A DNA stretch of 51,464 bases, taken from the NCBI GenBank assembly GCA_944358505.1, contig CALVRG010000011.1:1-51464 (forward strand). Reading direction: 5' to 3'. This document shows, piece after piece, positions 1-26,418 of this stretch. The notes under the pieces are model-generated. The model made no database searches. It saw only the letters and a program-made list of their open reading frames with translations, and was not told where the DNA came from. Position 1 is the first letter of the stretch, and each line of letters opens with the position of its first letter. The position numbers were made by a program, and so were the translations under genes. This DNA is from an uncultured Bacilli bacterium (GTDB lineage Bacteria > Bacillota_I > Bacilli_A > RF39 > UBA660).

Positions 1-1304
1 AGTACAGGTTGTCCTTTTTCATAACGTTCTTTTACTTCATTAATTATTGCTTTATATTTAGCACTTCTTGTTGCAAATACTAAATCAGGGGCATCAACTC
101 TTATAACAGGTTTATTAGTAGGTATTGTAATAACATACATATTATAAATATCTCTAAATTCCTCTTCTTCTGTTTTTGCAGTACCTGTCATTCCTGAAAG
201 CTTATTATACATTCTAAATAAATTTTGGAATGTTATTGTTGCAAGTGTTTTAGTCTCTTGATTTATTTTTACTCCTTCTTTAGCCTCTATAGCTTGATGA
301 AGTCCATCGCTATAAGCTCTACCTTTCATTAATCGTCCAGTAAACTGATCTACTATTACAACTTCATCATCTTGCACTACATAGTCAACATCTTTTTTCA
401 TAGCATAATTTGCTCTTAAAGCTTGATTAATATAGTGTAAAAGTGTAGCATTTTCTATTTCATACAAATTCTTTACCTTAAATGTTTTTTCTGCTTTTTC
501 ACTACCTTCATCAGTTAAAGAAACGCTTATTGTACTTTTTCCCGTTTCATCGCATATATAATCTGTATCTTCTTTTAAACTTTTAGCAAATTTATCAGCT
601 TCTAGATATAGATTAGCACTGTGTTGTGCTCCACCAGAAATTATTAATGGAGTCCTAGCTTCATCAATTAAAATAGAATCTACTTCATCAACAATAGCAA
701 AATTTAGTGGCCTTTGAACTCTATTTTCTTTTCTAATTACCATATTATCTCTTAAGTAATCAAAGCCTATTTCATTATTAGTAGAATATAAAATATCACA
801 ATTATATGCTTCTTGTTTTTCTTTTGGAGACATATCTCTTGTATTAACACCAACAGTCAATCCTAAAAAGCGATGTATACCTCCCATCCATTCAGCATCA
901 CGAGTTGCTAAATATTCATTAACAGTGATAATATGTACACCTTTTTCTTCTAAAGCATTTAAATAAGCAGGCATTACACATGTTAATGTTTTTCCTTCAC
1001 CTGTTTTCATCTCTGCTATATTACCATAATGAATTGCAAGTGCACCTAGTATTTGTACATAAAAAGGCTTTTCGCCAATAACACGATATGCAGCTTCTCT
1101 TGCAACTGCAAAAGCTTCGACTAAAATATCTTCTAATGTTTCTCCGTTTTTTAATCTTTCTTTAAATTCTTTTGTTTTATTTTTTAATTCGTCATCACTT
1201 AATTTTTGCATTTCTTCATCAAGTGCAACTACTTTATCTGCCTTTTCAGAAAACTTTTTTAACTCTTTATATTCATGATCAAAAAATTTTGTAAATAATC
1301 CCAT
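1..1304 (-). CDS. secA: Preprotein translocase ATPase SecA (5' part; runs off the window's left edge)
   Basis: Manual minus-strand translation from ATG at 1304 (SD AGGAG): [13 protein letters not shown]...[10 protein letters not shown] (Walker A)...[21 protein letters not shown]...GMTGTA. Not in the ORF track because it is truncated. Confidence 0.97.
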
Positions 1305-1388
1305 TTTAAACATCTCCTTGTATAATGTATTTTATCAAAAAAAAGTAATAATAAAAAGCTTTTGTGATAATTTTATTTATTTTATATA

Positions 1389-1421: not shown

Positions 1422-1949
1422 TTATTCTGACTCAATTAATCCATATCCGCCATTTTTTCTTTTATAGACAACTGCTTCTTTATCAGTATCAACATTTTTA
1501 AATAAGTAAAATTCATGACCAAGTAGTTCAAGTTGAAGAATAGCTTCTTCTTCATCCATTGGTTTTACTTCTACTTTCTTTCTTTTTATAATATTGTTTT
1601 CTTCATAATCTTCTTCTTCAATATTCATAATACTGAAATCAATCATTGTCTTTGCTTCTTTGGCTTTTATTTTAGTTTTATTTTTTCTTATTTGTCTTTC
1701 TATTATATCTATAGCTTTATCAACAGCAGCATAAAAATCATCTTGTGTCTCTTCAGATCTAATAATAAAATTATGAAGTGGAATTGTAATCTCTACGGTT
1801 TGAAAATGTCCTTTAACTTTTACTACTACATTAGCACGTACATCCTCACTATTTTCTAGATATTTTTCTATCCTTGTTAATTTTTCCTTGATGTAGTCTC
1901 TCATAGCATTAGTTACTTCTATTTTGTTACCTCTAATAATTATTTCCAT
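1422..1949 (-). CDS. hpf: Ribosome hibernation promoting factor, long HPF/RaiA
   Basis: MEIIIRGNKIEVT...DFYAAVD...KPMDEEEAILQLELLGHEFYLF...YKRKNGGYGLIE; the hpf-secA order is conserved. Start moved from 1982 to the ATG at 1949 after SD AAGGTGA. Confidence 0.95.
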   Translation of the reverse strand: MEIIIRGNKIEVTNAMRDYIKEKLTRIEKYLENSEDVRANVVVKVKGHFQTVEITIPLHNFIIRSEETQDDFYAAVDKAIDIIERQIRKNKTKIKAKEAKTMIDFSIMNIEEEDYEENNIIKRKKVEVKPMDEEEAILQLELLGHEFYLFKNVDTDKEAVVYKRKNGGYGLIESE

Positions 1950-1999
1950 ACTATCACCTTCCTTAGTATTAATATACCACAAAAGAAGAAAAAAACCAA

Positions 2000-2218
2000 C
2001 TATTTTACTAATGCTGGTTCTTTTATTGGTGTTACATCAACCGCTTGGTACCCTTTACTAGTTTCAAGTAATGTAAACTCTACATATTGTCCTTCAGCCA
2101 AAGTTTTATAACCCTCACAATTAATAGTTGAATAATGAACAAAAATATCTTCGTTTTCTTTGTATTCAATAAAGCCATATCCCTTTTCATTATTGAACCA
2201 TTTTACTTTTCCAATCAC
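2000..2218 (-). CDS. csp: Cold-shock domain protein (CspA family)
   Basis: GKVKWFNNEKGYGFI (RNP1) and DIFVHYS (RNP2). Probable GTG start at 2218 after SD GGAGGTGA. Confidence 0.95.
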   Translation of the reverse strand: MIGKVKWFNNEKGYGFIEYKENEDIFVHYSTINCEGYKTLAEGQYVEFTLLETSKGYQAVDVTPIKEPALVK

Positions 2219-2318
2219 TAGGATCACCTCCACATCTTTTATTGCTCACTTCTTGCCTACTACTTTCTCAAATGATGTGTTTTCATTATATCAATAGCAT
2301 TATGTTTATTATAATTTT

Positions 2319-2357
2319 TTCCGTTAATTGTCATTTTCATTCCTTTAAATGTTATTT
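2319..2357 (+). promoter_or_regulatory. Candidate LytTR/AgrA-binding direct repeat pair upstream of agrB
   Basis: TTCCGTTAATTGTCATTT (2319) and TTCCTTTAAATGTTATTT (2340) have a 21-bp period. The 9-mer TCCGTTAAT fits the LytTR consensus [TA][AC][CA]GTTN[AG][TG]. Confidence 0.55.
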
Positions 2358-2470
2358 ATATAGAAAAACATAAACATTATTCCAATCGTTCTTTAAAGAT
2401 GCCTTTTTAAGGATAACTTATTTTTTAATTAGTGATTGGAGTTATAATTTTTGTAGCATAGGAGGGTAGT

Positions 2471-3064
2471 ATGAAAGAAGCATTTTTAAATCATTCTATG
2501 GACTTCATATCTAAAAATAGAATTGATATGAGTGACGAAGATAAAGAAAAGCTAATATATGGTTTAGAGGGTCTTTACATGACTATAACTAAACTATTGA
2601 TAATTTTTCTTATTGCTTTGGCTTTAGGTTTTATTAAAGAATTTATTATAACATTAATACTCTTTAATATAATAAGATTTCCAGGTTTTGGATTTCATGC
2701 CAGTAAGTCTATAGTTTGTTTAATTTCGAGTACTATTTTAATTTTAGGATTACCTTATTTATTTGTTAATGTTGAGGTTAATCTTATCATTAAATTAATT
2801 CTATGTTTAGTTTCAGTTATAACATTTATAATCTGTGCTCCTGCTGATACCTATAAAAGACCACTTACTAATAAGAAAAAGAGAACTATTAGAAAGGTTT
2901 GTGCCTGTACTATTGCAATAATTTATAGTGTTATTATTATTGCCTTTAATAAGAGCATAATTAGTGATTTGTTATTAGCAGCACTTATGATTGAAACTGT
3001 TTTAATTTCTCCTATAATGTATGTTATTTTTGGAGAACCTTATAATAATTATAAAAAGGTTTAA
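2471..3064 (+). CDS. agrB: Accessory gene regulator B (AIP-maturing membrane peptidase)
   Basis: 197-aa polytopic membrane protein with YGLE, RFPGFGFHA..IVC (catalytic His/Cys region) and APADTYKRPL motifs; SD GGAGGG. Confidence 0.95.
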   Translation: MKEAFLNHSMDFISKNRIDMSDEDKEKLIYGLEGLYMTITKLLIIFLIALALGFIKEFIITLILFNIIRFPGFGFHASKSIVCLISSTILILGLPYLFVNVEVNLIIKLILCLVSVITFIICAPADTYKRPLTNKKKRTIRKVCACTIAIIYSVIIIAFNKSIISDLLLAALMIETVLISPIMYVIFGEPYNNYKKV

Positions 3065-3114
3065 ACATTTATATGTTTAAATAAATATGTAGTAAGGAAA
3101 GGATGAGAAGTGAA

Positions 3115-3234
3115 ATGAAAAAAAGAATAGCTAAAGTTCTAGCTGCTGTTGCTATGTTAGCTACTGCAAGTGCTAGTATGGGATGTGCTTGGTGGATGTG
3201 TGAAGAACCAAAAGCATTAAAAAACATGGATTAA
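3115..3234 (+). CDS. agrD: AgrD cyclic-lactone autoinducing peptide precursor (39 aa)
   Basis: Manual translation MKKRIAKVLAAVAMLATASASMGCAWWMCEEPKALKNMD*: amphipathic leader, Cys-aromatic core, EEP tail. It lies 50 bp after agrB with SD AAAGGA; an alternative in-frame ATG is at 3103. Confidence 0.9.
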   Translation: MKKRIAKVLAAVAMLATASASMGCAWWMCEEPKALKNMD

Positions 3235-3240
3235 TAAATT

Positions 3241-3265
3241 AAGAGTGTGAATTCACTCTTTTTTT
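3241..3265 (+). terminator. Hairpin terminator between convergent agrD and agrC
   Basis: AAGAGTG-TGAATT-CACTCTT followed by a T-run; overlaps the agrC stop. Confidence 0.65.
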
Positions 3266-4542
3266 AATTCTAATTTTTGAATAAAATAATTATCTATAGT
3301 TTTTACTTCCGTATTAAAAACCTGTGATTTTTTAATTATTTTGTCTGCAAAATATAAACCTTTACCATGGGTACTACCTTTTGTTGTAAATCCTTTTTTA
3401 ATTACATTCTTTAAATTTATTTTACCTTTAAAACTATTTGTTATAACAAATAAGATATTTTCTTTAATTTTATATACTTCTAAAGTTATCTGTTTTTTTT
3501 CTGAATTTATTGCAGCCTCTATTGCATTATCAAAATAAATGCCAATAAGTTGACTTAATTCTCTACAAACAACTGAAGAAAATTTAAAATCATTATCTTT
3601 TAATTTAGGACTAATATCTACTGATATATTTAATCCTTCCATGTTCGCTACTAATAATTTATAATATATTAAGCTTTTTATTTCTCCTTTTGGTATATAT
3701 TTTATTTGACCAAGTATATATGTGTCAGCAGTTAAATCAACTTTTAAAATATCACTTAATATTTTTATTATTTTTTCATCTTTTGTGGCATCTATTATTT
3801 TTGAAAGTTGATTTTTATATTCGTGTATCTTTAAGTCTTGCTTTTCTTGATAATCCTCTACATTGCGCATACATTCTGTCAATATGTTATTTTGAATTAA
3901 AAGCCTATCATATTTTATTATTTCACACATATAGATTAATATTAATAAAATAAAGACAATAATTACAATATTAATAGTAAAATAATACTTTGTTGGTGCA
4001 AATAAATTCGATGTCGTATAATAACAAATGCATATAGCTATAAAAGCAAATAAGCAATAAATTATAAGAGCTCTATTTTTAGGCCTTTCTAATCTTTTAG
4101 TACTATTAGTAATGAATTTATTAATAGGTTTCAAATTAAATATAAAATATGTCACTAGTGAAATACATGTATTAGTTAAAAACATGATTAAATAGTTGTT
4201 TCTCATTGCATCAAATTCCATAAAATTAATCATTATAGCTGAGCATATCAAATCTGGAATTGTTGAAACTATCATTATAAATAATACATATATTAGGCTA
4301 ACTATTATATCAATTTCAAATATTTTCTTCACTGACAATGATAAAAACAAAAAAGTTAAAAATGTTGTAAAATCATATTCTGTTGTAAAAAATACTATAG
4401 TTGGTAAAATACTTAATAAAATCCACTCTAAATTCTTTATGGTTAATAACTTTATTTGTGATTTTGTTATTTTTTTGATAATTAATATAGCAATTAAATT
4501 CATTAAAGTGATATTAATTAGTTTTACTATTACTAGTGACAT
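3253..4542 (-). CDS. agrC: AgrC-like sensor histidine kinase (GHKL domain)
   Basis: About 6-7 N-terminal TM segments, H-box HEYKNQL, N-box GIYFDNAIEAA and G-box GFTTKGSTHGKGL. Confidence 0.9.
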   Translation of the reverse strand: MSLVIVKLINITLMNLIAILIIKKITKSQIKLLTIKNLEWILLSILPTIVFFTTEYDFTTFLTFLFLSLSVKKIFEIDIIVSLIYVLFIMIVSTIPDLICSAIMINFMEFDAMRNNYLIMFLTNTCISLVTYFIFNLKPINKFITNSTKRLERPKNRALIIYCLFAFIAICICYYTTSNLFAPTKYYFTINIVIIVFILLILIYMCEIIKYDRLLIQNNILTECMRNVEDYQEKQDLKIHEYKNQLSKIIDATKDEKIIKILSDILKVDLTADTYILGQIKYIPKGEIKSLIYYKLLVANMEGLNISVDISPKLKDNDFKFSSVVCRELSQLIGIYFDNAIEAAINSEKKQITLEVYKIKENILFVITNSFKGKINLKNVIKKGFTTKGSTHGKGLYFADKIIKKSQVFNTEVKTIDNYFIQKLELKKE

Positions 4543-5254
4543 ATTTAATCAACTCCTTTTTACCAGATCTTGATATTAAGTTAGTACTCATACCATTTAT
4601 GAATAACACTTCATTTTCTCTTATATTATAAGTACTTATTTTATCAGTATTTAAAATTAAACTCTTATGTACTTTTAAAAATCTTTTATCTAATTCCTTT
4701 GATATTGCATTTAATGTATAAGATGCTTTGAAAGTACCATAATCCGTTTGAATAATACATCTTTTGCTATCTTGTTCTTTCTCAATAAAAATAATACTTT
4801 TTAATTCTATTTTATATAATGTGTAATTGTATTCATAATTTAAACATTTTTCTTTACTGTTATATTGTTTATAAATTATTTTTAACGTCTCTTTTATTTT
4901 AGTTTTGCAATTGTCATATTTACTTATAAAATCTAATAAATATAATCTATTAGTTAGTGCTTCATAACGATATTCTGAAAAAGAAGTTACGATTACTATA
5001 ATAGAATTCCAATCTTCTAATTCTTCTCTTATAAACCTTGTAGCATCTAATCCTGAGCCGTCTTTTGTTTTAATATCAAGAAAATATACTTTAAATCCTA
5101 GGTCTTTTCTAGCTAATGCTTCGAAACGTTCATCATAAGTTTCAAATGTATACTTTTTATATTCAATATCATAACTCATCATAAACTTATCAATTTCATC
5201 TGTTACTAGTTTTCTAAACTCTTTTTCATCATCACATATAATAAAATTTAACAC
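4514..5254 (-). CDS. agrA: AgrA-like LytTR response regulator
   Basis: Receiver domain (IICDDE, YFLDI with phospho-Asp, FISK) plus LytTR domain (IIFIE...FLKVHKSLILN...ISRS). Probable GTG start at 5254 after SD AAGGAGG; overlaps the agrC start. Confidence 0.92.
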   Translation of the reverse strand: MLNFIICDDEKEFRKLVTDEIDKFMMSYDIEYKKYTFETYDERFEALARKDLGFKVYFLDIKTKDGSGLDATRFIREELEDWNSIIVIVTSFSEYRYEALTNRLYLLDFISKYDNCKTKIKETLKIIYKQYNSKEKCLNYEYNYTLYKIELKSIIFIEKEQDSKRCIIQTDYGTFKASYTLNAISKELDKRFLKVHKSLILNTDKISTYNIRENEVLFINGMSTNLISRSGKKELIKYVTSNSKTN

Positions 5255-5338
5255 TACTTCATCCTCCTTTACACAACACCCTCTAAATTTTACCATATAT
5301 TTCCAGTTTATAAAATTTTTGTCAAAAAAAAATAGTAG

Positions 5339-6460
5339 CTATTTAACCCTATTTTTCTTTTTAAATTTTTGTTCTTTTTTTATTACTTCTCCTACTTTTT
5401 CAATAATATTATCTGTTACTTCTTTATTCTTTTTAGAAATTATAGTTGTTCTTAATACAAACCAAACAACTATAATAAATATTATTATATATAAAATTCT
5501 ACCCATAACTGGATCTTTTAATGAATAGAAAATTGATGCACTCGCAAATAAAAAATTAAATCCATAAATTATTAATACAGTTGTTCGTTGAGAGAAGTTC
5601 ATTCCCAAAAGTTGATGATGTATATGCTCTTTGTCTGGTGAAAATGGTGCTTGATGTTTTAAAAGTCTTCTTATTATCGCAAATAATGTGTCCAATATTG
5701 GAATTCCTAATATCATAAGTGGTACAAACAAACTAGTAAGCGCTGGTCCTTTAAATTCTAATAGTGTTATAACCGCTATCATAAAGCCTAAGTACATAGC
5801 ACAGTCTCCACAAAATATTTTTGCCGGATAAAAGTTATGTAGTAAAAAACCTAACGTTGCTCCTAACATTATAAATGTTAATATCATTACTAATGTTCCA
5901 CTACGTCCTTGAAAATATCCAATAATACCAATAGTTAAGAAAAATATACTACATATTCCACCACTTAATCCATCTAAACCATCTATTAGATTTATTATAT
6001 TAACACATGCTACTATAAAGAAAATAGTGAAGGGATATGATAACATTCCAAAATTTAATGTATAACCAAATGCTGTTATATTATTTAAAAGAAAGCCTCC
6101 ATAGAAAACAAGAATTGATGCTGCTATTATTTGTCCTATTAGTTTTGTTCTTGCTCTTAATGATTTAATATCATCTGCAATACCTGTTAATATTATAATA
6201 AAACTGCCTATTAGTATAGAGTTCATTTGAACACTTTCTGTTCCAAATAGCATATAACTTATTAGGAAAGCTAAAAATATTCCTACTCCACCTAATTTAG
6301 GGGTTGCCTTTGTGTGTATATGTCTATGTCCTTCATCGTTTCTTGGAATATCTATAGCTCCAATATGCTTTGCTATTTTTTTCATAAATGGCATTATAAG
6401 AGCAGAGCAAATAAATGTTGTTATAACTATCTTTAATATGGAAATTATTTCTTGATTCAT
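5339..6460 (-). CDS. tagO: Undecaprenyl-phosphate GlcNAc-1-phosphate transferase (TagO/WecA, MraY family)
   Basis: PKLGG, GIADD, NIINLIDGLDGL, PAKIFCGD and PDKEHIHH motifs; polytopic. Confidence 0.9.
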   Translation of the reverse strand: MNQEIISILKIVITTFICSALIMPFMKKIAKHIGAIDIPRNDEGHRHIHTKATPKLGGVGIFLAFLISYMLFGTESVQMNSILIGSFIIILTGIADDIKSLRARTKLIGQIIAASILVFYGGFLLNNITAFGYTLNFGMLSYPFTIFFIVACVNIINLIDGLDGLSGGICSIFFLTIGIIGYFQGRSGTLVMILTFIMLGATLGFLLHNFYPAKIFCGDCAMYLGFMIAVITLLEFKGPALTSLFVPLMILGIPILDTLFAIIRRLLKHQAPFSPDKEHIHHQLLGMNFSQRTTVLIIYGFNFLFASASIFYSLKDPVMGRILYIIIFIIVVWFVLRTTIISKKNKEVTDNIIEKVGEVIKKEQKFKKKNRVK

Positions 6461-6569
6461 AATTTTTCCTCTTTTCTAAAATTATTATAACAAGTAAGCA
6501 TATTTTTTACAATAAAAGTTAATAAACAAATAGAACCTTGTCTTTATACTAAAGATTCAAGGTCCTATT

Positions 6570-7562
6570 TTAATTATCTTCTAATAATTTTACATTATCT
6601 AATAAAACTCCAGTTCCTTCAACAACACAAGTTAACGGACTATCTGCAATTAATACTGGAACTTTTAATTCTTTCTTTAATACTTCATTTAATCCTTTTA
6701 ACATAGAACCACCACCAGTTAAAACTATACCTTTATCTACAATATCAGCAGAAAGTTCAGGTGGTGTTTGCTCTAATACATTGGTTGCTGCTTTTACTAT
6801 TTTATATATAGACTCATGTAATGCCTCTTCTGTTTCTACTTCATTTATTTCAATTGTATTAGGAAGTCCTGTTACTAAGTCCCTTCCTCTTACTTCTAAT
6901 TTAGTCTTTTTATCAGGTTCATAAAGATTTGCAAAGTTTATTTTTATATCTTCTGCTGTTTTTTCACCTATTAACAATTTATATTTTTCTTTAATGTATT
7001 TAACAATATCTTGATCAAATACATTTCCTGCTATACGAACTGAAGCACTATTTACAATATCATTTAAAGATAATATTGCTATATCTGTTGTCCCTCCACC
7101 AATATCTATTACCATATTAGCACTAGGTTTAGATATATCCATACCTGCTCCTATAGCAGCAACTTTTGGTTCTTCTTCCAAAAATACTTTTCTTGCTCCT
7201 GTACGTTCTGCAGCTTCTTTTATAGCATTTTTTTCAACTGGAGTTACATTAGTTGGACAGCATATTAGTATTCTAGGCCTTGATAAAAAGTTCCTAGCAT
7301 GAATTTTTCTTATAAAATAATCTAACATTATTTCAGTAATTTCAAAGTCAGCTATTACACCATCTTTCATAGGTTTAATAGCTTTTACTTTTTCTGGTGT
7401 TCTTCCTAGCATTTCACTAGCTTCTTTACCTACTGCTACAACTTTTTTATTGTCTGTATCAATAGCAACAACACTAGGCTCATTTAAGACTATTCCCTCT
7501 CCTTTTATATATATTAAAACATTTGCTGTTCCTAGATCAATACCAATATCTTTTGATAGCAT
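6570..7562 (-). CDS. mbl: MreB-like rod-shape protein Mbl
   Basis: DIGIDLGTAN, EPSVVA, DIGGGTT and LTGGG motifs. Position after spoIIQ matches the Bacillus mbl locus. Confidence 0.9.
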   Translation of the reverse strand: MLSKDIGIDLGTANVLIYIKGEGIVLNEPSVVAIDTDNKKVVAVGKEASEMLGRTPEKVKAIKPMKDGVIADFEITEIMLDYFIRKIHARNFLSRPRILICCPTNVTPVEKNAIKEAAERTGARKVFLEEEPKVAAIGAGMDISKPSANMVIDIGGGTTDIAILSLNDIVNSASVRIAGNVFDQDIVKYIKEKYKLLIGEKTAEDIKINFANLYEPDKKTKLEVRGRDLVTGLPNTIEINEVETEEALHESIYKIVKAATNVLEQTPPELSADIVDKGIVLTGGGSMLKGLNEVLKKELKVPVLIADSPLTCVVEGTGVLLDNVKLLEDN

Positions 7563-9373: not shown

Positions 9374-9406
9374 CTCCTTTCGCCATGATAAATAATATCA
9401 TAGAAA
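9374..9406 (-). promoter_or_regulatory. Candidate L31 ribosomal-protein leader hairpin
   Basis: Minus strand CTATGATA-TTATT-TATCATGG hairpin directly followed by CGAAAGGAG (SD). Confidence 0.45.
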
Positions 9407-22787: not shown

Positions 22788-23553
22788 CTAATACCTCTAT
22801 TTCTTCTAAAGATTCATTCTGTTTAGCAATTAAAATCTTAGGATTGTATTCTATTTCACTTATTATTTTGGAAAGAGAATTATAAGCAAGCTCTTCTTTA
22901 TTATTATGTTCGCTTAAGTGGGCAAGTATTATGTACATAGTGTCTTTACCTATTAACTTTTTTAAATATTTAGCTGTTGTATCATTGGAAAGATGCCCTT
23001 CGTCGCTTAAAATACGTTGTTTTAAATAAAATGGATATGGACCATTCAGCAGCATTTTTTCGTCATGATTACTTTCAATATAATAAATATTTTTATTAGT
23101 TAAAAGTGGAAAGTATTTACGATTTATATAACCTGTATCTGTAATATATACTAGTGAATTTTTATCTTCATTAATTACAAAGCCAACTGATCCTTTAGCA
23201 TCATGTGATGTTTTAAAAACTATTATATTTGTTTTACTATTTAAAGATATATTTTCTTGATATTCTTCTATTCTGTCTTCATTAATATCAATATTTAATT
23301 CTTTTAACATATCTACATTAGTATAAACTTTAAATTTACTGTTTTTTAACAAAACTTTAAGTCCGCTAGTATGGTCATTATGAGCGTGTGTTAAAAGTAA
23401 ACAATCTATACTATCTATAGTTAAGTTCATCTTCTCTAGTTCTTTTTTTAATCTCTGATATGTTATCCCTATATCAATTAGAAAGCGAGCAGATTTAGTT
23501 TCTATATAAGAACAATTTCCTTTAGATCCACTCGCTAAAACTTTTATTTTCAT
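22762..23553 (-). CDS. walJ: MBL-fold metallo-hydrolase YycJ/WalJ
   Basis: LASGSKGN, THAHNDH, TSHDA, TDTGY, ESNHD, GHLSN and LAHLSEHNN motifs. Confidence 0.9.
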   Translation of the reverse strand: MKIKVLASGSKGNCSYIETKSARFLIDIGITYQRLKKELEKMNLTIDSIDCLLLTHAHNDHTSGLKVLLKNSKFKVYTNVDMLKELNIDINEDRIEEYQENISLNSKTNIIVFKTSHDAKGSVGFVINEDKNSLVYITDTGYINRKYFPLLTNKNIYYIESNHDEKMLLNGPYPFYLKQRILSDEGHLSNDTTAKYLKKLIGKDTMYIILAHLSEHNNKEELAYNSLSKIISEIEYNPKILIAKQNESLEEIEVLDDKIDMCR

Positions 23554-25070
23554 TAGAATAAACTCATTGGATTTAGAGAAGATGATCCTTTACTATATGG
23601 AAATTTCTTCCACAATCCAAAGTGTAAGTGAACTCCTGTTGCTGCTCCTGTTCTACCCATTGAGCCTATTGTATCTCCCATTGACACTTCTTGTCCAACA
23701 CTTACATATCGTTCTGCAAGGTGTGCATACATCGTATAGTAACCATTATTATGATTAATGACAATATATTCTCCATTATCATACTTGTATGAAGAAGCTA
23801 CTACAATTCCATTATTTGAAGCATAAATAGGCGAACCATAGCCTGCTCCTGCAATATCCATACCATCATGCAGTGTTCCCCAACGATATCCATAAGGACT
23901 ACTTATATAATATGGGGTTCTAGTAGGCCATAACCAGTATCCTTCAACCTTTGTATTACTACTTAATCCACTATTAACACCACCACTAGATCCTTTTTGC
24001 TTTGTACCTTTTACAATTATTTTCTTTATTGGTTCTTTTAATACTTTAGTAGCATTATTATCAATAACAGCACTTTCAACTTGTCCATTTACTTTTTGAA
24101 CTTTTGATGTTACTAATTGTGATCCAACTACTCCTTCCTGAATTGTTTCCTGATACGTACTATATTTAGTATTATCATATCTTGTTTCAGTTTCATATGG
24201 TATATCTTGCATCGTTACTTGATGATCTATTTCTACTAATCGAAATTGAGGCTTGATAATACTAATCGTAACATTTTGACCCTCGTATAAAAGATTATTC
24301 GCATCTGTAAATTCAGGATTTGCTATTAAGAATTCTTCATTTGATAATTTATTATTAAAAGCAACATTACTAATAGTATCTCCAGCTTGGACAGTATATT
24401 TTTGTTGTTCTTCTAATGTTCCAAATAAAAGATACTTACTTAAATCATCACTAGTTTCATAAATTGTTTCATCTGATGGGACATTGGTTTCTTTAATAGT
24501 TATCTTGTTTTCTATATAAATGTTTTCTATTATTGTTCCTGTTTTTCCGTCTTCGATTGCTTGTTGTTCGTTAGCAAGATATTTATCATAACTATCACTA
24601 TCAACAAATGATCTTATAGTTCTATCCATTGCATCTTTAAATACTTGTTTATCTAAAACATATAGAACTTGATCCTTTTCTTTAATTGTCTCACCTTGTT
24701 CATTTGTTTTTTCTATACCTGATATTGTTATTTTATACCCTTTTATTGTAAATGGCTCTATATCTTTAATCTTATTATATATTTCTTTCGTTGTAGAAAT
24801 ATTTTCATTATAAGTTACGTCTTTAATAACTTCTAAATCTTCTGGTGCATAAACTTTATCAGCATTATATTTATCTTTTAATTCTTGTTGTTCTTTATCT
24901 ATATATTCATTAAGATCTTCTTTATTATTTATTAATCCAACTGACTTTCCAGCTAGATAAACACGATAAACACTTTTAGGAGTTGTTGTTTGCTCTTTTG
25001 GTATAATAAATACTAATATAAGGCTTATAACCAATGCTATTAAAATAGTGATTATTTTTTTTATATTCAT
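23553..25070 (-). CDS. Membrane-anchored LysM-G5-M23 peptidoglycan endopeptidase
   Basis: TM anchor, LysM (YTVQAGDTIS), G5 (IPYETETR...QEGVVG...IIVKGTK), and M23 with intact HDGMD and HLH. Confidence 0.9.
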   Translation of the reverse strand: MNIKKIITILIALVISLILVFIIPKEQTTTPKSVYRVYLAGKSVGLINNKEDLNEYIDKEQQELKDKYNADKVYAPEDLEVIKDVTYNENISTTKEIYNKIKDIEPFTIKGYKITISGIEKTNEQGETIKEKDQVLYVLDKQVFKDAMDRTIRSFVDSDSYDKYLANEQQAIEDGKTGTIIENIYIENKITIKETNVPSDETIYETSDDLSKYLLFGTLEEQQKYTVQAGDTISNVAFNNKLSNEEFLIANPEFTDANNLLYEGQNVTISIIKPQFRLVEIDHQVTMQDIPYETETRYDNTKYSTYQETIQEGVVGSQLVTSKVQKVNGQVESAVIDNNATKVLKEPIKKIIVKGTKQKGSSGGVNSGLSSNTKVEGYWLWPTRTPYYISSPYGYRWGTLHDGMDIAGAGYGSPIYASNNGIVVASSYKYDNGEYIVINHNNGYYTMYAHLAERYVSVGQEVSMGDTIGSMGRTGAATGVHLHFGLWKKFPYSKGSSSLNPMSLF

Positions 25071-25071
25071 T

Positions 25072-26418
25072 TTACTCCTCCTCATTTTCATTTTTGCTCA
25101 TATTTAAAAATGTTGATGTATCTTTTTTAAATAAAAGTTGAATTGTAGCTTGAGGCCCACTTCTATGTTTAGCTATAATAAATTCACTAATACTTGTAGG
25201 GTCATTTTTTGATTCTTTACTATAATAATCATCACGATACAAAAATCCTACTAAATCGGCATCTTGTTCAATAGAACCTGATTCTCTTAAATCAGATAAC
25301 ATAGGCCTTTTATCTTCTCTTCCTTCTACACTACGAGAAAGCTGTGCTAAAGCAATAACAGGAATATGTAATTCCATAGCTAATGTTTTTAAACTTCTTG
25401 AAATATCTGCAACCTCTTGTTGTCTATTAGCTCCATAATTTTTTCCACCTGATATTAATTGTAAATAGTCAATTATAACTAAATCTAGGCCATCAGTACT
25501 TGATGACAAACGACGGCATTTAGCACGAATTTCTCCTATTGTTATGCCTGGTGTATCATCTATATATAATTTTGCATCTGATAATCTGCTTACTGCTTGA
25601 TCAAACCTTTTCCAATCATTATTCAACATTTTACCAGTTCTTAATTTAAATCCTTCTAATTGGCCAAGAGAAGATATAATACGACTTGCTAATTGTTCTG
25701 CACCCATCTCTAAGTTAAAAACTGCAACCGTTTTATCAGTATGTGTTGTGACATAAGTTGCAAGATTTAATGCAAAAGCTGTTTTACCCATACCAGGACG
25801 AGCTGCTAATATTATAAGTTCATTTTCATGAAGACCTGCTGTTATTTTATCAATATCATACCACCCTGTTGGAATACCTGTAATTTCTCCTTTAGATTCT
25901 GCCAATTTTTGTAAGTCTTCCTCTGTTTTTTCTAGAACTTTTTGAATAGACTTAAATTCACTAGATTTACGATTCTTTGCAATTGTTAAAATTTTACGTT
26001 CAGCTTGATCTAAAATATCATTTATATTTTCATCACTATTATAACCATTTGCAGCAATAGACTCCGCTGTTTCGATTAATCTCCTTAACAAAGAGGCATT
26101 TTGAACTTCTTTTATATAATATTCTACATTAGTAGCTGTTGGAACAAAGGTTGTTATCTCTGTAAGATAAGTTACTCCCCCAATATCATTTAAATAGTTT
26201 AGTTTAGTTAAAGTTGTTGTTAATGTTGTCAAATCAACTGGTGTTTTTTCTTCTACTAACTTTTTTAAAGCTACAAATATTTTAACATTTCTTTGATCAT
26301 AGAAGTCTGTATCATCTAAATTTTCGATGGCCATTAATAAAGCTGAATTTGATAGAAAGCATGAGCCCAAAACACTTTTTTCAGCTTCTAAATTTTGAGG
26401 CAGTTGTTTTACAGCCAT
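25072..26418 (-). CDS. dnaB: Replicative DNA helicase
   Basis: PQNLEAEKSVLG, AARPGMGKT, IIDYLQL and LSDLRESGSIEQDAD motifs. Confidence 0.98.
   Translation of the reverse strand: MAVKQLPQNLEAEKSVLGSCFLSNSALLMAIENLDDTDFYDQRNVKIFVALKKLVEEKTPVDLTTLTTTLTKLNYLNDIGGVTYLTEITTFVPTATNVEYYIKEVQNASLLRRLIETAESIAANGYNSDENINDILDQAERKILTIAKNRKSSEFKSIQKVLEKTEEDLQKLAESKGEITGIPTGWYDIDKITAGLHENELIILAARPGMGKTAFALNLATYVTTHTDKTVAVFNLEMGAEQLASRIISSLGQLEGFKLRTGKMLNNDWKRFDQAVSRLSDAKLYIDDTPGITIGEIRAKCRRLSSSTDGLDLVIIDYLQLISGGKNYGANRQQEVADISRSLKTLAMELHIPVIALAQLSRSVEGREDKRPMLSDLRESGSIEQDADLVGFLYRDDYYSKESKNDPTSISEFIIAKHRSGPQATIQLLFKKDTSTFLNMSKNENEEE

Follow-up and report, generated by a model that had tools for sequence, protein, structure and literature searches.

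We analyzed a 51,464-nucleotide stretch of contig CALVRG010000011.1 (hereafter the window) from the metagenome-assembled genome (MAG) of an uncultured Bacilli bacterium (GCA_944358505.1; GTDB lineage RF39, UBA660). The window contains an agr locus in which agrB and agrD lie on the forward strand and agrC and agrA lie on the reverse strand, with the two units converging on one hairpin. Judged by its gene families, open frames, and conserved residues, the locus is a real, complete, and intact agr-type cyclic-peptide signaling system, ordinary in kind. We are fairly confident that it functions in peptide quorum sensing and that it consists of two converging transcription units. A first-pass annotation, made from the sequence alone, had placed a complete four-gene agr system here with agrA ending at position 5254, and the open reading frames (ORFs) and family matches bear this out. 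The locus contains the following features.

2471 to 3064, forward strand: agrB, a predicted membrane peptidase of 197 amino acids that processes AgrD; it matches the Pfam AgrB family.
3115 to 3234, forward strand: agrD, 39 amino acids (MKKRIAKVLAAVAMLATASASMGCAWWMCEEPKALKNMD); an alternative ATG at 3103 gives 43 amino acids.
3241 to 3260, both strands: shared hairpin between the converging units, with a 7-bp stem and a T-run on the forward strand.
3253 to 4542, reverse strand: agrC, a predicted membrane histidine kinase and peptide receptor of 429 amino acids; it matches HATPase_c_5.
4514 to 5254, reverse strand: agrA, a LytTR response regulator of 246 amino acids starting from the GTG at 5254.

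AgrB matched Pfam PF04647 with 111.2 bits (cut-off, 23; 4.9e-32), and the match covered residues 10 to 179 of 197. Residues H76 and C83 were invariant in an alignment of five diverse AgrBs. We take these to be the catalytic pair, as in work on Staphylococcus aureus AgrB.

The agrD ORF begins 39 to 51 nt downstream of agrB. ATG 3115 is a more likely start than ATG 3103 because the AgrDs of congeners begin at an MKKR methionine, which corresponds to ATG 3115 in the window. The encoded peptide has a hydrophobic leader followed by G-C, five variable residues, and an acidic Pro-containing tail (EEPKALKNMD). We also collected 80 related loci in a scan of one genome per species. The query was tuned to the AgrB subfamily of the window, and all counts from these loci describe that subfamily only. 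The AgrD pattern of a ring Cys and an acidic Pro-containing tail was extracted by regular expression in 74 of the 80.

The predicted AgrD ring is CAWWMC or CAWWM. A ring of six residues (CAWWMC) appears most likely and a ring of five less likely, because variation extends over all five positions that follow the Cys, and the conserved follower starts at [DE]EP. The six-residue form is also favored by the two closest cultured AgrDs, which share the form C-x5-EEP, and by the agr peptides of the Clostridium acetobutylicum type (R6T0), which PMC10301443 describes with six-membered rings.

AgrC matched HATPase_c_5 with 43.8 bits (cut-off, 22; 2.5e-11; Pfam). The best solved relative of its kinase domain was S. 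aureus AgrC (4bxi; 9.6e-9). Across 15 sequences H240, D338 and N339 of the N box, and G393 and G395 of the G box were invariant, and N244 was conserved. Residues 1 to 200 are visibly hydrophobic when the sequence is read by eye.

AgrA matched LytTR with 47.8 bits (cut-off, 22.6; 1.8e-12; Pfam). As a single sequence it had no solved-structure match, and a profile of 15 relatives matched full-length ComE (4cbv; 1.5e-36) and the AgrA LytTR domain (3bs1; 1e-18). D60 and K112 were invariant, and D9 and T90 were kept in at least 90% of the 15 sequences. The kinase His (H240), the receiver Asp (D60), and the AgrB His/Cys pair, all called intact in the first-pass annotation, therefore hold up as invariant alignment columns. 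Both sensing proteins aligned end to end with the staphylococcal equivalogs of NCBIfam, and both scored far under the cut-offs (AgrC, 38.7 bits against 500; AgrA, 44.8 bits against 400). By these matches they are agr-family proteins without close kinship to the staphylococcal ones.

The GTG at 5254 has a GGAGG sequence 8 nt upstream. An ORF start listed at 5296 was rejected, as the upstream extension contains stop codons in congeners. The end of agrA overlaps the start of agrC by 29 nt, and we therefore treat agrA-agrC as one unit.

The convergent layout described by the first-pass annotation recurs. In 22 of 23 congener loci agrC runs toward agrB-agrD, and the contig of the remaining locus breaks off within agrD. 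Among the 80 related loci agrC converges on agrB in 74, with agrA behind it in 68 of these, and none is co-linear. The other six contigs end within 640 nt after agrB, where the layout is not visible.

The hairpin proposed between the two units was also recovered. It is terminator-like on both strands, and 2 such sites were counted in positions 1900 to 6700 (0.9 expected). The forward strand folds at -12.1 kcal/mol (z score, -2.4) and the reverse strand at -8.5 kcal/mol (z score, -1.8). The agrC stop codon (3253 to 3255) lies inside the stem. A stem with flanking A- and T-runs follows directly after agrD in 19 of 24 genus loci, and its sequence differs between loci. The z score of the agrD-agrC hairpin is below -2 in 12 of 24. 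The other five (L032 to L036) have no stem in the folded stretch; the stop codons there are 2 to 4 nt apart.

The MAG that contains the window is fragmented. It has 915,794 bases (0.92 Mb) in 74 contigs and is 72% complete with 3.1% contamination. The locus might therefore be a decaying remnant, or its convergent layout an assembly artifact. We consider this extremely unlikely. All four frames are open, the catalytic residues are kept, and the layout recurs in independent assemblies. In addition, three studies yielded chicken-gut and bird metagenome runs whose contigs contain window DNA. The junction agrD-agrC (3156 to 3619) and other parts of the window occur there as identical pieces. This comparison covered four DNA runs and pieces of 200 to 1200 nt, and it speaks to allele presence only. 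Among the runs listed as containing the stretch, none was an RNA run.

The locus was next to the same genes in the genus as in the window. The window contains the following neighbors (ORF listing).

3 to 1313, reverse strand: secA.
1422 to 1982, reverse strand: hpf.
2000 to 2233, reverse strand: csp.
5339 to 6460, reverse strand: tagO/wecA-type transferase gene.
6570 to 7562, reverse strand: mreB.

Of the 24 other species searched in the genus, 23 gave an AgrB match, and the genome of the one without a match is 86% complete. The order secA-hpf-csp, agrB-agrD, agrC-agrA-tagO-mreB is kept in congeners as far as the contigs reach. The agr locus is core in the genus and is fixed at one chromosomal site; it is not sporadic, the finding that the first-pass annotation had named as damaging to its own reading. 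Its observation that the surroundings carry no mobile-element scars also agrees with our results. No mobile-element genes were seen among the window ORFs flanking the locus, and congeners have the locus at the same site.

Outside the genus the surroundings are kept in part. Neighboring genes were counted when a hit covered half of the query with E below 1e-5. In 72 of 80 related loci csp lies upstream on the opposite strand, mostly with hpf and secA, and this extends down to approximately 67% SecA identity. In only 21 of 80 does tagO lie downstream. The synteny proposed for tagO-agrAC-agrDB-csp-hpf thus stands across the genus and, beyond it, mainly on the csp side. These counts indicate that the old link of agrB is to csp-hpf and not to an interval between tagO and hpf.

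That interval was the basis for a further claim, that agr replaced an ancestral degSU/comF block between tagO and hpf as a core regulatory replacement. In Bacillus subtilis secA-hpf and tagO bracket degSU, comF, and flagellar genes, and in the window secA-hpf and tagO are also near each other. The search for the DegS family, however, matched the B. subtilis control but none of 31 relatives in 13 families, and agrB is tied to csp-hpf-secA far more often than to tagO. We found no support for the replacement and regard it as very unlikely.

The 80 related loci all come from MAGs with titles such as uncultured Bacilli, Tenericutes, or Mollicutes. Judging by the isolate names, these MAGs are from the gut of humans, rabbits, ruminants, and chickens. 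Seven of them (L057, L058, L060, L066, L092, L098, and L109) are convergent agr loci with no csp, hpf, or secA within 4 to 5 kb upstream, so the AgrB subfamily also occurs in another genomic context. In four (L043, L058, L065, and L093) agrC is present twice, in tandem, between agrD and agrA.

AgrB was over the cut-off in 23 of 299 genomes of a broader sample from the phylum. We examined 22 loci from this sample, with kinase and regulator profiles that were built from the lineage of the window and may miss distant ones. The convergent order occurred only in three genomes of the window's own family. Loci from other families (0 of 18 convergent) had co-linear, A-C-B, divergent, and other orders.

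The window contains the following candidate expression signals for the two units.

2321 to 2352, forward strand: direct repeat of 11-mers (CCGTTAATTGT, 10 nt, CCTTTAAATGT) with a period of 21, approximately 150 nt upstream of the agrB ATG.
2443 to 2448, forward strand: TATAAT, -10-like and conserved, 23 nt before the agrB ATG (csp-agrB spacer alignment, by eye).
5287 to 5314, reverse strand: predicted agrA-agrC promoter, TTTATA, 16 nt, TG-n-TAAAAT (extended -10).
5324 to 5360, reverse strand: terminator-like hairpin and T-run at the tagO end, upstream of the agrA promoter (-9.6 kcal/mol; z score, -2.9).

The block TGGAAA..TATGGTAAAAT at the -10 of the agrA promoter is invariant or nearly so in 20 genus loci. 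At the tagO end the hairpin position of the second genus subgroup is occupied by another stem sequence (by eye). No paired repeats were seen upstream of agrA. On the other side, a GGAGG ribosome-binding site lies between TATAAT (2443 to 2448) and the agrB ATG, and this TATAAT is a possible basal agrB promoter. The first-pass annotation proposed that signal production is transcribed separately from sensing. The conserved agrA promoter, the tagO terminator, and the hairpins after agrD in 19 of 24 genus loci point the same way, each as a prediction.

The period-21 repeat is a candidate AgrA operator. LytTR regulators bind paired direct repeats about two helical turns apart, and we read the repeat as a putative operator because it has this form. 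The pair is kept in the genus (spacer alignment). It is the only perfect match in its own genome, and all 5 near-complete congeners examined carry it upstream of agrB (control hits, 0). A period-21 repeat at -170 to -135 was top scoring in 13 of 79 related upstream regions (shuffles: mean, 1.23; maximum, 4). These regions share ancestry, and their counts overstate independence. The sequence of the repeat unit varies between lineages. Its position stays in register with the agrB start codon and not with csp, across csp-agrB distances of 230 to 378 nt. If AgrA binds it, then signal production would be self-induced. The other operator hits in the genome of the window, at 3 mismatches, were no more than chance would give (shuffles, 0 to 3). 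Extra hits with 2 mismatches in congeners were rejected, as the window counterpart (3 mismatches) lies inside a peptidase gene (23553 to 25091).

The same upstream region could instead make the locus part of sporulation control. Spo0A would gate the signal, and the system would feed back on sporulation, as in several clostridia. The genome of the window encodes Spo0A_C (contig C10, 13406 to 13717), as do 15 of 18 sampled congeners. The motif TGTCGAA, which we presume to be the Spo0A box, is present between -96 and -100 relative to the agrB start in 13 of 25 genus loci, and one further locus has its reverse complement at -86. Counting either orientation, 31 of 79 related upstream regions contain it (shuffles, 1.6). 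The motif is sometimes paired upstream of agrB in relatives, with approximately 10 bp between copies.

According to PMC10301443, agr influences sporulation in C. acetobutylicum. The window itself, however, has no TGTCGAA upstream of agrB. The box could also belong to the csp promoter, its meaning here is our own assumption, and the counts from related loci are not independent. On balance we consider a role in sporulation control rather unlikely.

The signal and receptor sequences are hypervariable. Among close species the flanking proteins have mean pairwise identities of 0.96 (SecA), 0.92 (Hpf), 0.96 (Csp), 0.95 (TagO), and 0.97 (MreB). The corresponding values are 0.84 for AgrA, 0.77 for AgrB, and 0.44 for AgrC. 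The sensor half of AgrC has an identity of 0.22 to 0.39 and the kinase half 0.41 to 0.71. The ring columns of AgrD are at 0.48 to 0.59, and the columns flanking them are at 0.86 or above, except for the first five residues (0.42). The six AgrC sensor pairs that are most similar share 3 to 4 of 5 ring residues. The closest AgrC-sensor partners of the window are L024 (ring CAWWMI) and L023 (ring CGWWMI). In the specificity groups of staphylococcal agr the AgrD/AgrC region is likewise hypervariable against conserved flanks. As judged from these alignments, the AgrD ring/AgrC pattern is that of agr specificity groups (pherotype-like), spread across species of one genus.

This pattern also fits a different use of the same parts. 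Peptides of the staphylococcal agr groups activate their own receptor and block others, and the main role of the locus could be interference between co-resident species or strains. The hypervariable ring and sensor beside near-identical flanks and the shared ring residues in the most similar sensor pairs are both consistent with interference. So is a second allele in the same bin (ring CVWIIA, with another AgrC), which fits congeners living together. On the other hand, self-sensing is compatible with interference, and the overall correlation of ring to sensor is weak. We regard interference as the main use as possible but not the probable case.

The second allele (L002) was retrieved from contig C46 (1 to 3318) of the same bin (G000). 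It contains a second copy of the neighborhood, hpf-csp-csp-agrB-agrD facing agrC. Its AgrB is 74% identical to that of the window and its AgrC is 35% identical. Since the duplication extends to hpf and csp, this copy more likely belongs to a co-binned congener than represents a paralogue.

Several results weigh against a working agr system with a self-induced signal. The peptide of the window scored 13.5 bits (43-amino-acid form) and 13.8 bits (39-amino-acid form) against NCBIfam TIGR04223, under the cut-off of 19. The Response_reg match of AgrA as a single sequence was 23.7 bits, under the Pfam cut-off of 30.2. The relation between ring and AgrC-sensor similarity was weak overall (Spearman, 0.20; 105 pairs), and 127 of 2000 permutations were as high. 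The repeat lies approximately 90 nt upstream of TATAAT (2443 to 2448), and no convincing promoter or -10 could be placed beside it by eye. The divergent csp promoter has its predicted -35 near repeat 1, and this repeat might serve csp in the genus of the window. Finally, no second operator was found in the same genome (72% complete) or in five congeners, so no output regulon is visible.

The low AgrD score can be placed in a series. The profile searches proposed with the first-pass annotation succeeded for AgrB, LytTR, and HATPase_c_5, all above their cut-offs, and fell short for AgrD. No Pfam match was found for the AgrD peptide, and TIGR04223 was its top family despite the score. Of 24 peptides at the AgrD position in related loci, 18 passed TIGR04223, 3 were below the cut-off, and 3 had no match. 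The 3 below the cut-off and 2 of the 3 unmatched peptides lack the second Pro of the usual DEPEMPKSL tail, as does the genus of the window. The remaining unmatched peptide (L105) has Thr at the Cys position. We read the window peptide as a diverged AgrD, at the extreme of this series of same-position peptides.

Other ring residues were seen elsewhere. The bin of the window contains a third and distant agr locus (L001; contig C74, 202 to 2231), which is convergent and encodes an AgrB of 35% identity. Its AgrD-like peptide has Thr in place of the ring Cys (T-x5-DEP), and the same is true of L105 (4928 to 5065). These peptides predict a threonine-closed lactone. The locus L039 (G025; same order, other family) is likewise convergent. 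The small ORF after its agrB (3652 to 3831) has no Cys near the tail (…KVSALYEKEMPKHMLNK), and its ring residue may be Ser.

Known agr systems differ from this locus mainly in layout. The first-pass annotation took the co-linear agrBDCA order as the known baseline, which is too narrow. C. difficile agr2 has the order agrACDB (PMC3754575, PMC8534292), C. acetobutylicum has agrBD and agrCA as separate operons (PMC10301443), and convergent loci are annotated on two Clostridium plasmids.

S. aureus agrBDCA contains the same four gene families, and its AgrC is the nearest solved structure to that of the window. The window locus differs in that it is not one co-linear operon with a divergent RNAIII; its units converge. 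C. difficile agr2 is a complete four-gene system with an order other than that of S. aureus. The authors of PMC3754575 suggest that its four genes are on a single transcript, whereas the window has two converging units.

The C. acetobutylicum system, as described in PMC10301443, shares the four gene families, separate units for signal and sensor, the lack of an RNAIII-type effector (it has no RNAIII), and five residues from the Cys to an acidic follower. In the window one hairpin lies between the converging units, no CA_C0082-like gene is adjacent, and the host belongs to the Bacilli.

The convergent layout is not unique. Convergent agrB and agrD with GHKL kinase and LytTR genes are annotated on plasmids pCEST-001C of C. 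estertheticum and pCM022-183 of C. tagluense (RefSeq). These loci are the best plasmid matches to the AgrB of the window (37.8% identity), and their AgrDs likewise have the form C-x5-EEP. They adjoin radical-SAM or ABC genes, whereas the window locus is chromosomal and fixed beside csp-hpf-secA. Among the papers listed by the literature searches (supplements excluded) there was no experimental work on these plasmid loci and no description of the convergent agr layout or of agr in the lineage of the window. In the RF39/RFN20 paper PMC7301438 the terms quorum, sporulation, and Spo0A each had 0 occurrences.

The host was proposed to be an uncultured gut lineage with a streamlined genome. This agrees with a MAG of 0.92 Mb at 72% completeness, from which the host genome is roughly 1.3 Mb, with the gut origin of the related MAGs, and with the presence of the stretch in runs from chicken gut and from bird metagenomes. 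The only Rfam family to reach its gathering score in the window was an L31-Firmicutes ribosomal protein leader (9374 to 9403, reverse strand; 33.9 bits; gathering score, 33.3); RNAIII and other regulatory RNA families did not. The csp leader (2234 to 2310) contains a genus-wide conserved block (…CAAACGATGTG… on the forward strand), and csp has the extended -10 TGCTATAAT on the reverse strand in most congeners. The leader is probably a cold-shock-type 5' untranslated region.

The mechanism that we favor builds on the gene identities, catalytic residues, layout, conservation, hypervariability, and sequence elements described above. From these we infer all that follows on expression, processing, ring size, binding, and feedback. 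The agrB-agrD unit would produce and export a cyclic thiolactone peptide. AgrB would cleave AgrD ahead of the conserved acidic-Pro follower (EEP), with the ring closed on Cys24 (39-amino-acid form). The agrA-agrC unit would have an extended -10 promoter to itself, located behind the tagO terminator, and the receptor and regulator would for this reason probably always be present. The peptide would bind the membrane domain of AgrC and lead to phosphotransfer from H240 to D60 of AgrA. Phosphorylated AgrA would then bind the period-21 repeat approximately 150 nt upstream of the agrB start, which would yield more signal. The agrD-agrC hairpin would terminate both units.

The same scheme may extend to the whole order of small-genome, Spo0A-bearing gut Bacilli. 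There would be one vertically inherited agr locus beside csp-hpf-secA, with sensing always on and a six-residue signal that is self-induced and, in most lineages, also under Spo0A control. Signal and receptor would diversify fast enough to give co-resident species private dialects. We put this forward tentatively and hold it to be doubtful in its full form. If true, it would provide a natural model for pherotype origin and for sporulation under quorum control in near-minimal spore-formers.

As a variant of agr wiring the split convergent circuit can be tested, and it adds no new principle. The agr system has been studied mostly in pathogens, and here it appears as a core, vertically kept locus in a widespread uncultured gut lineage. 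With dozens of natural alleles of signal and receptor on near-identical backgrounds, this lineage would be useful material for studying the evolution of peptide-receptor specificity. Synthetic peptides may help to culture or manipulate these bacteria.

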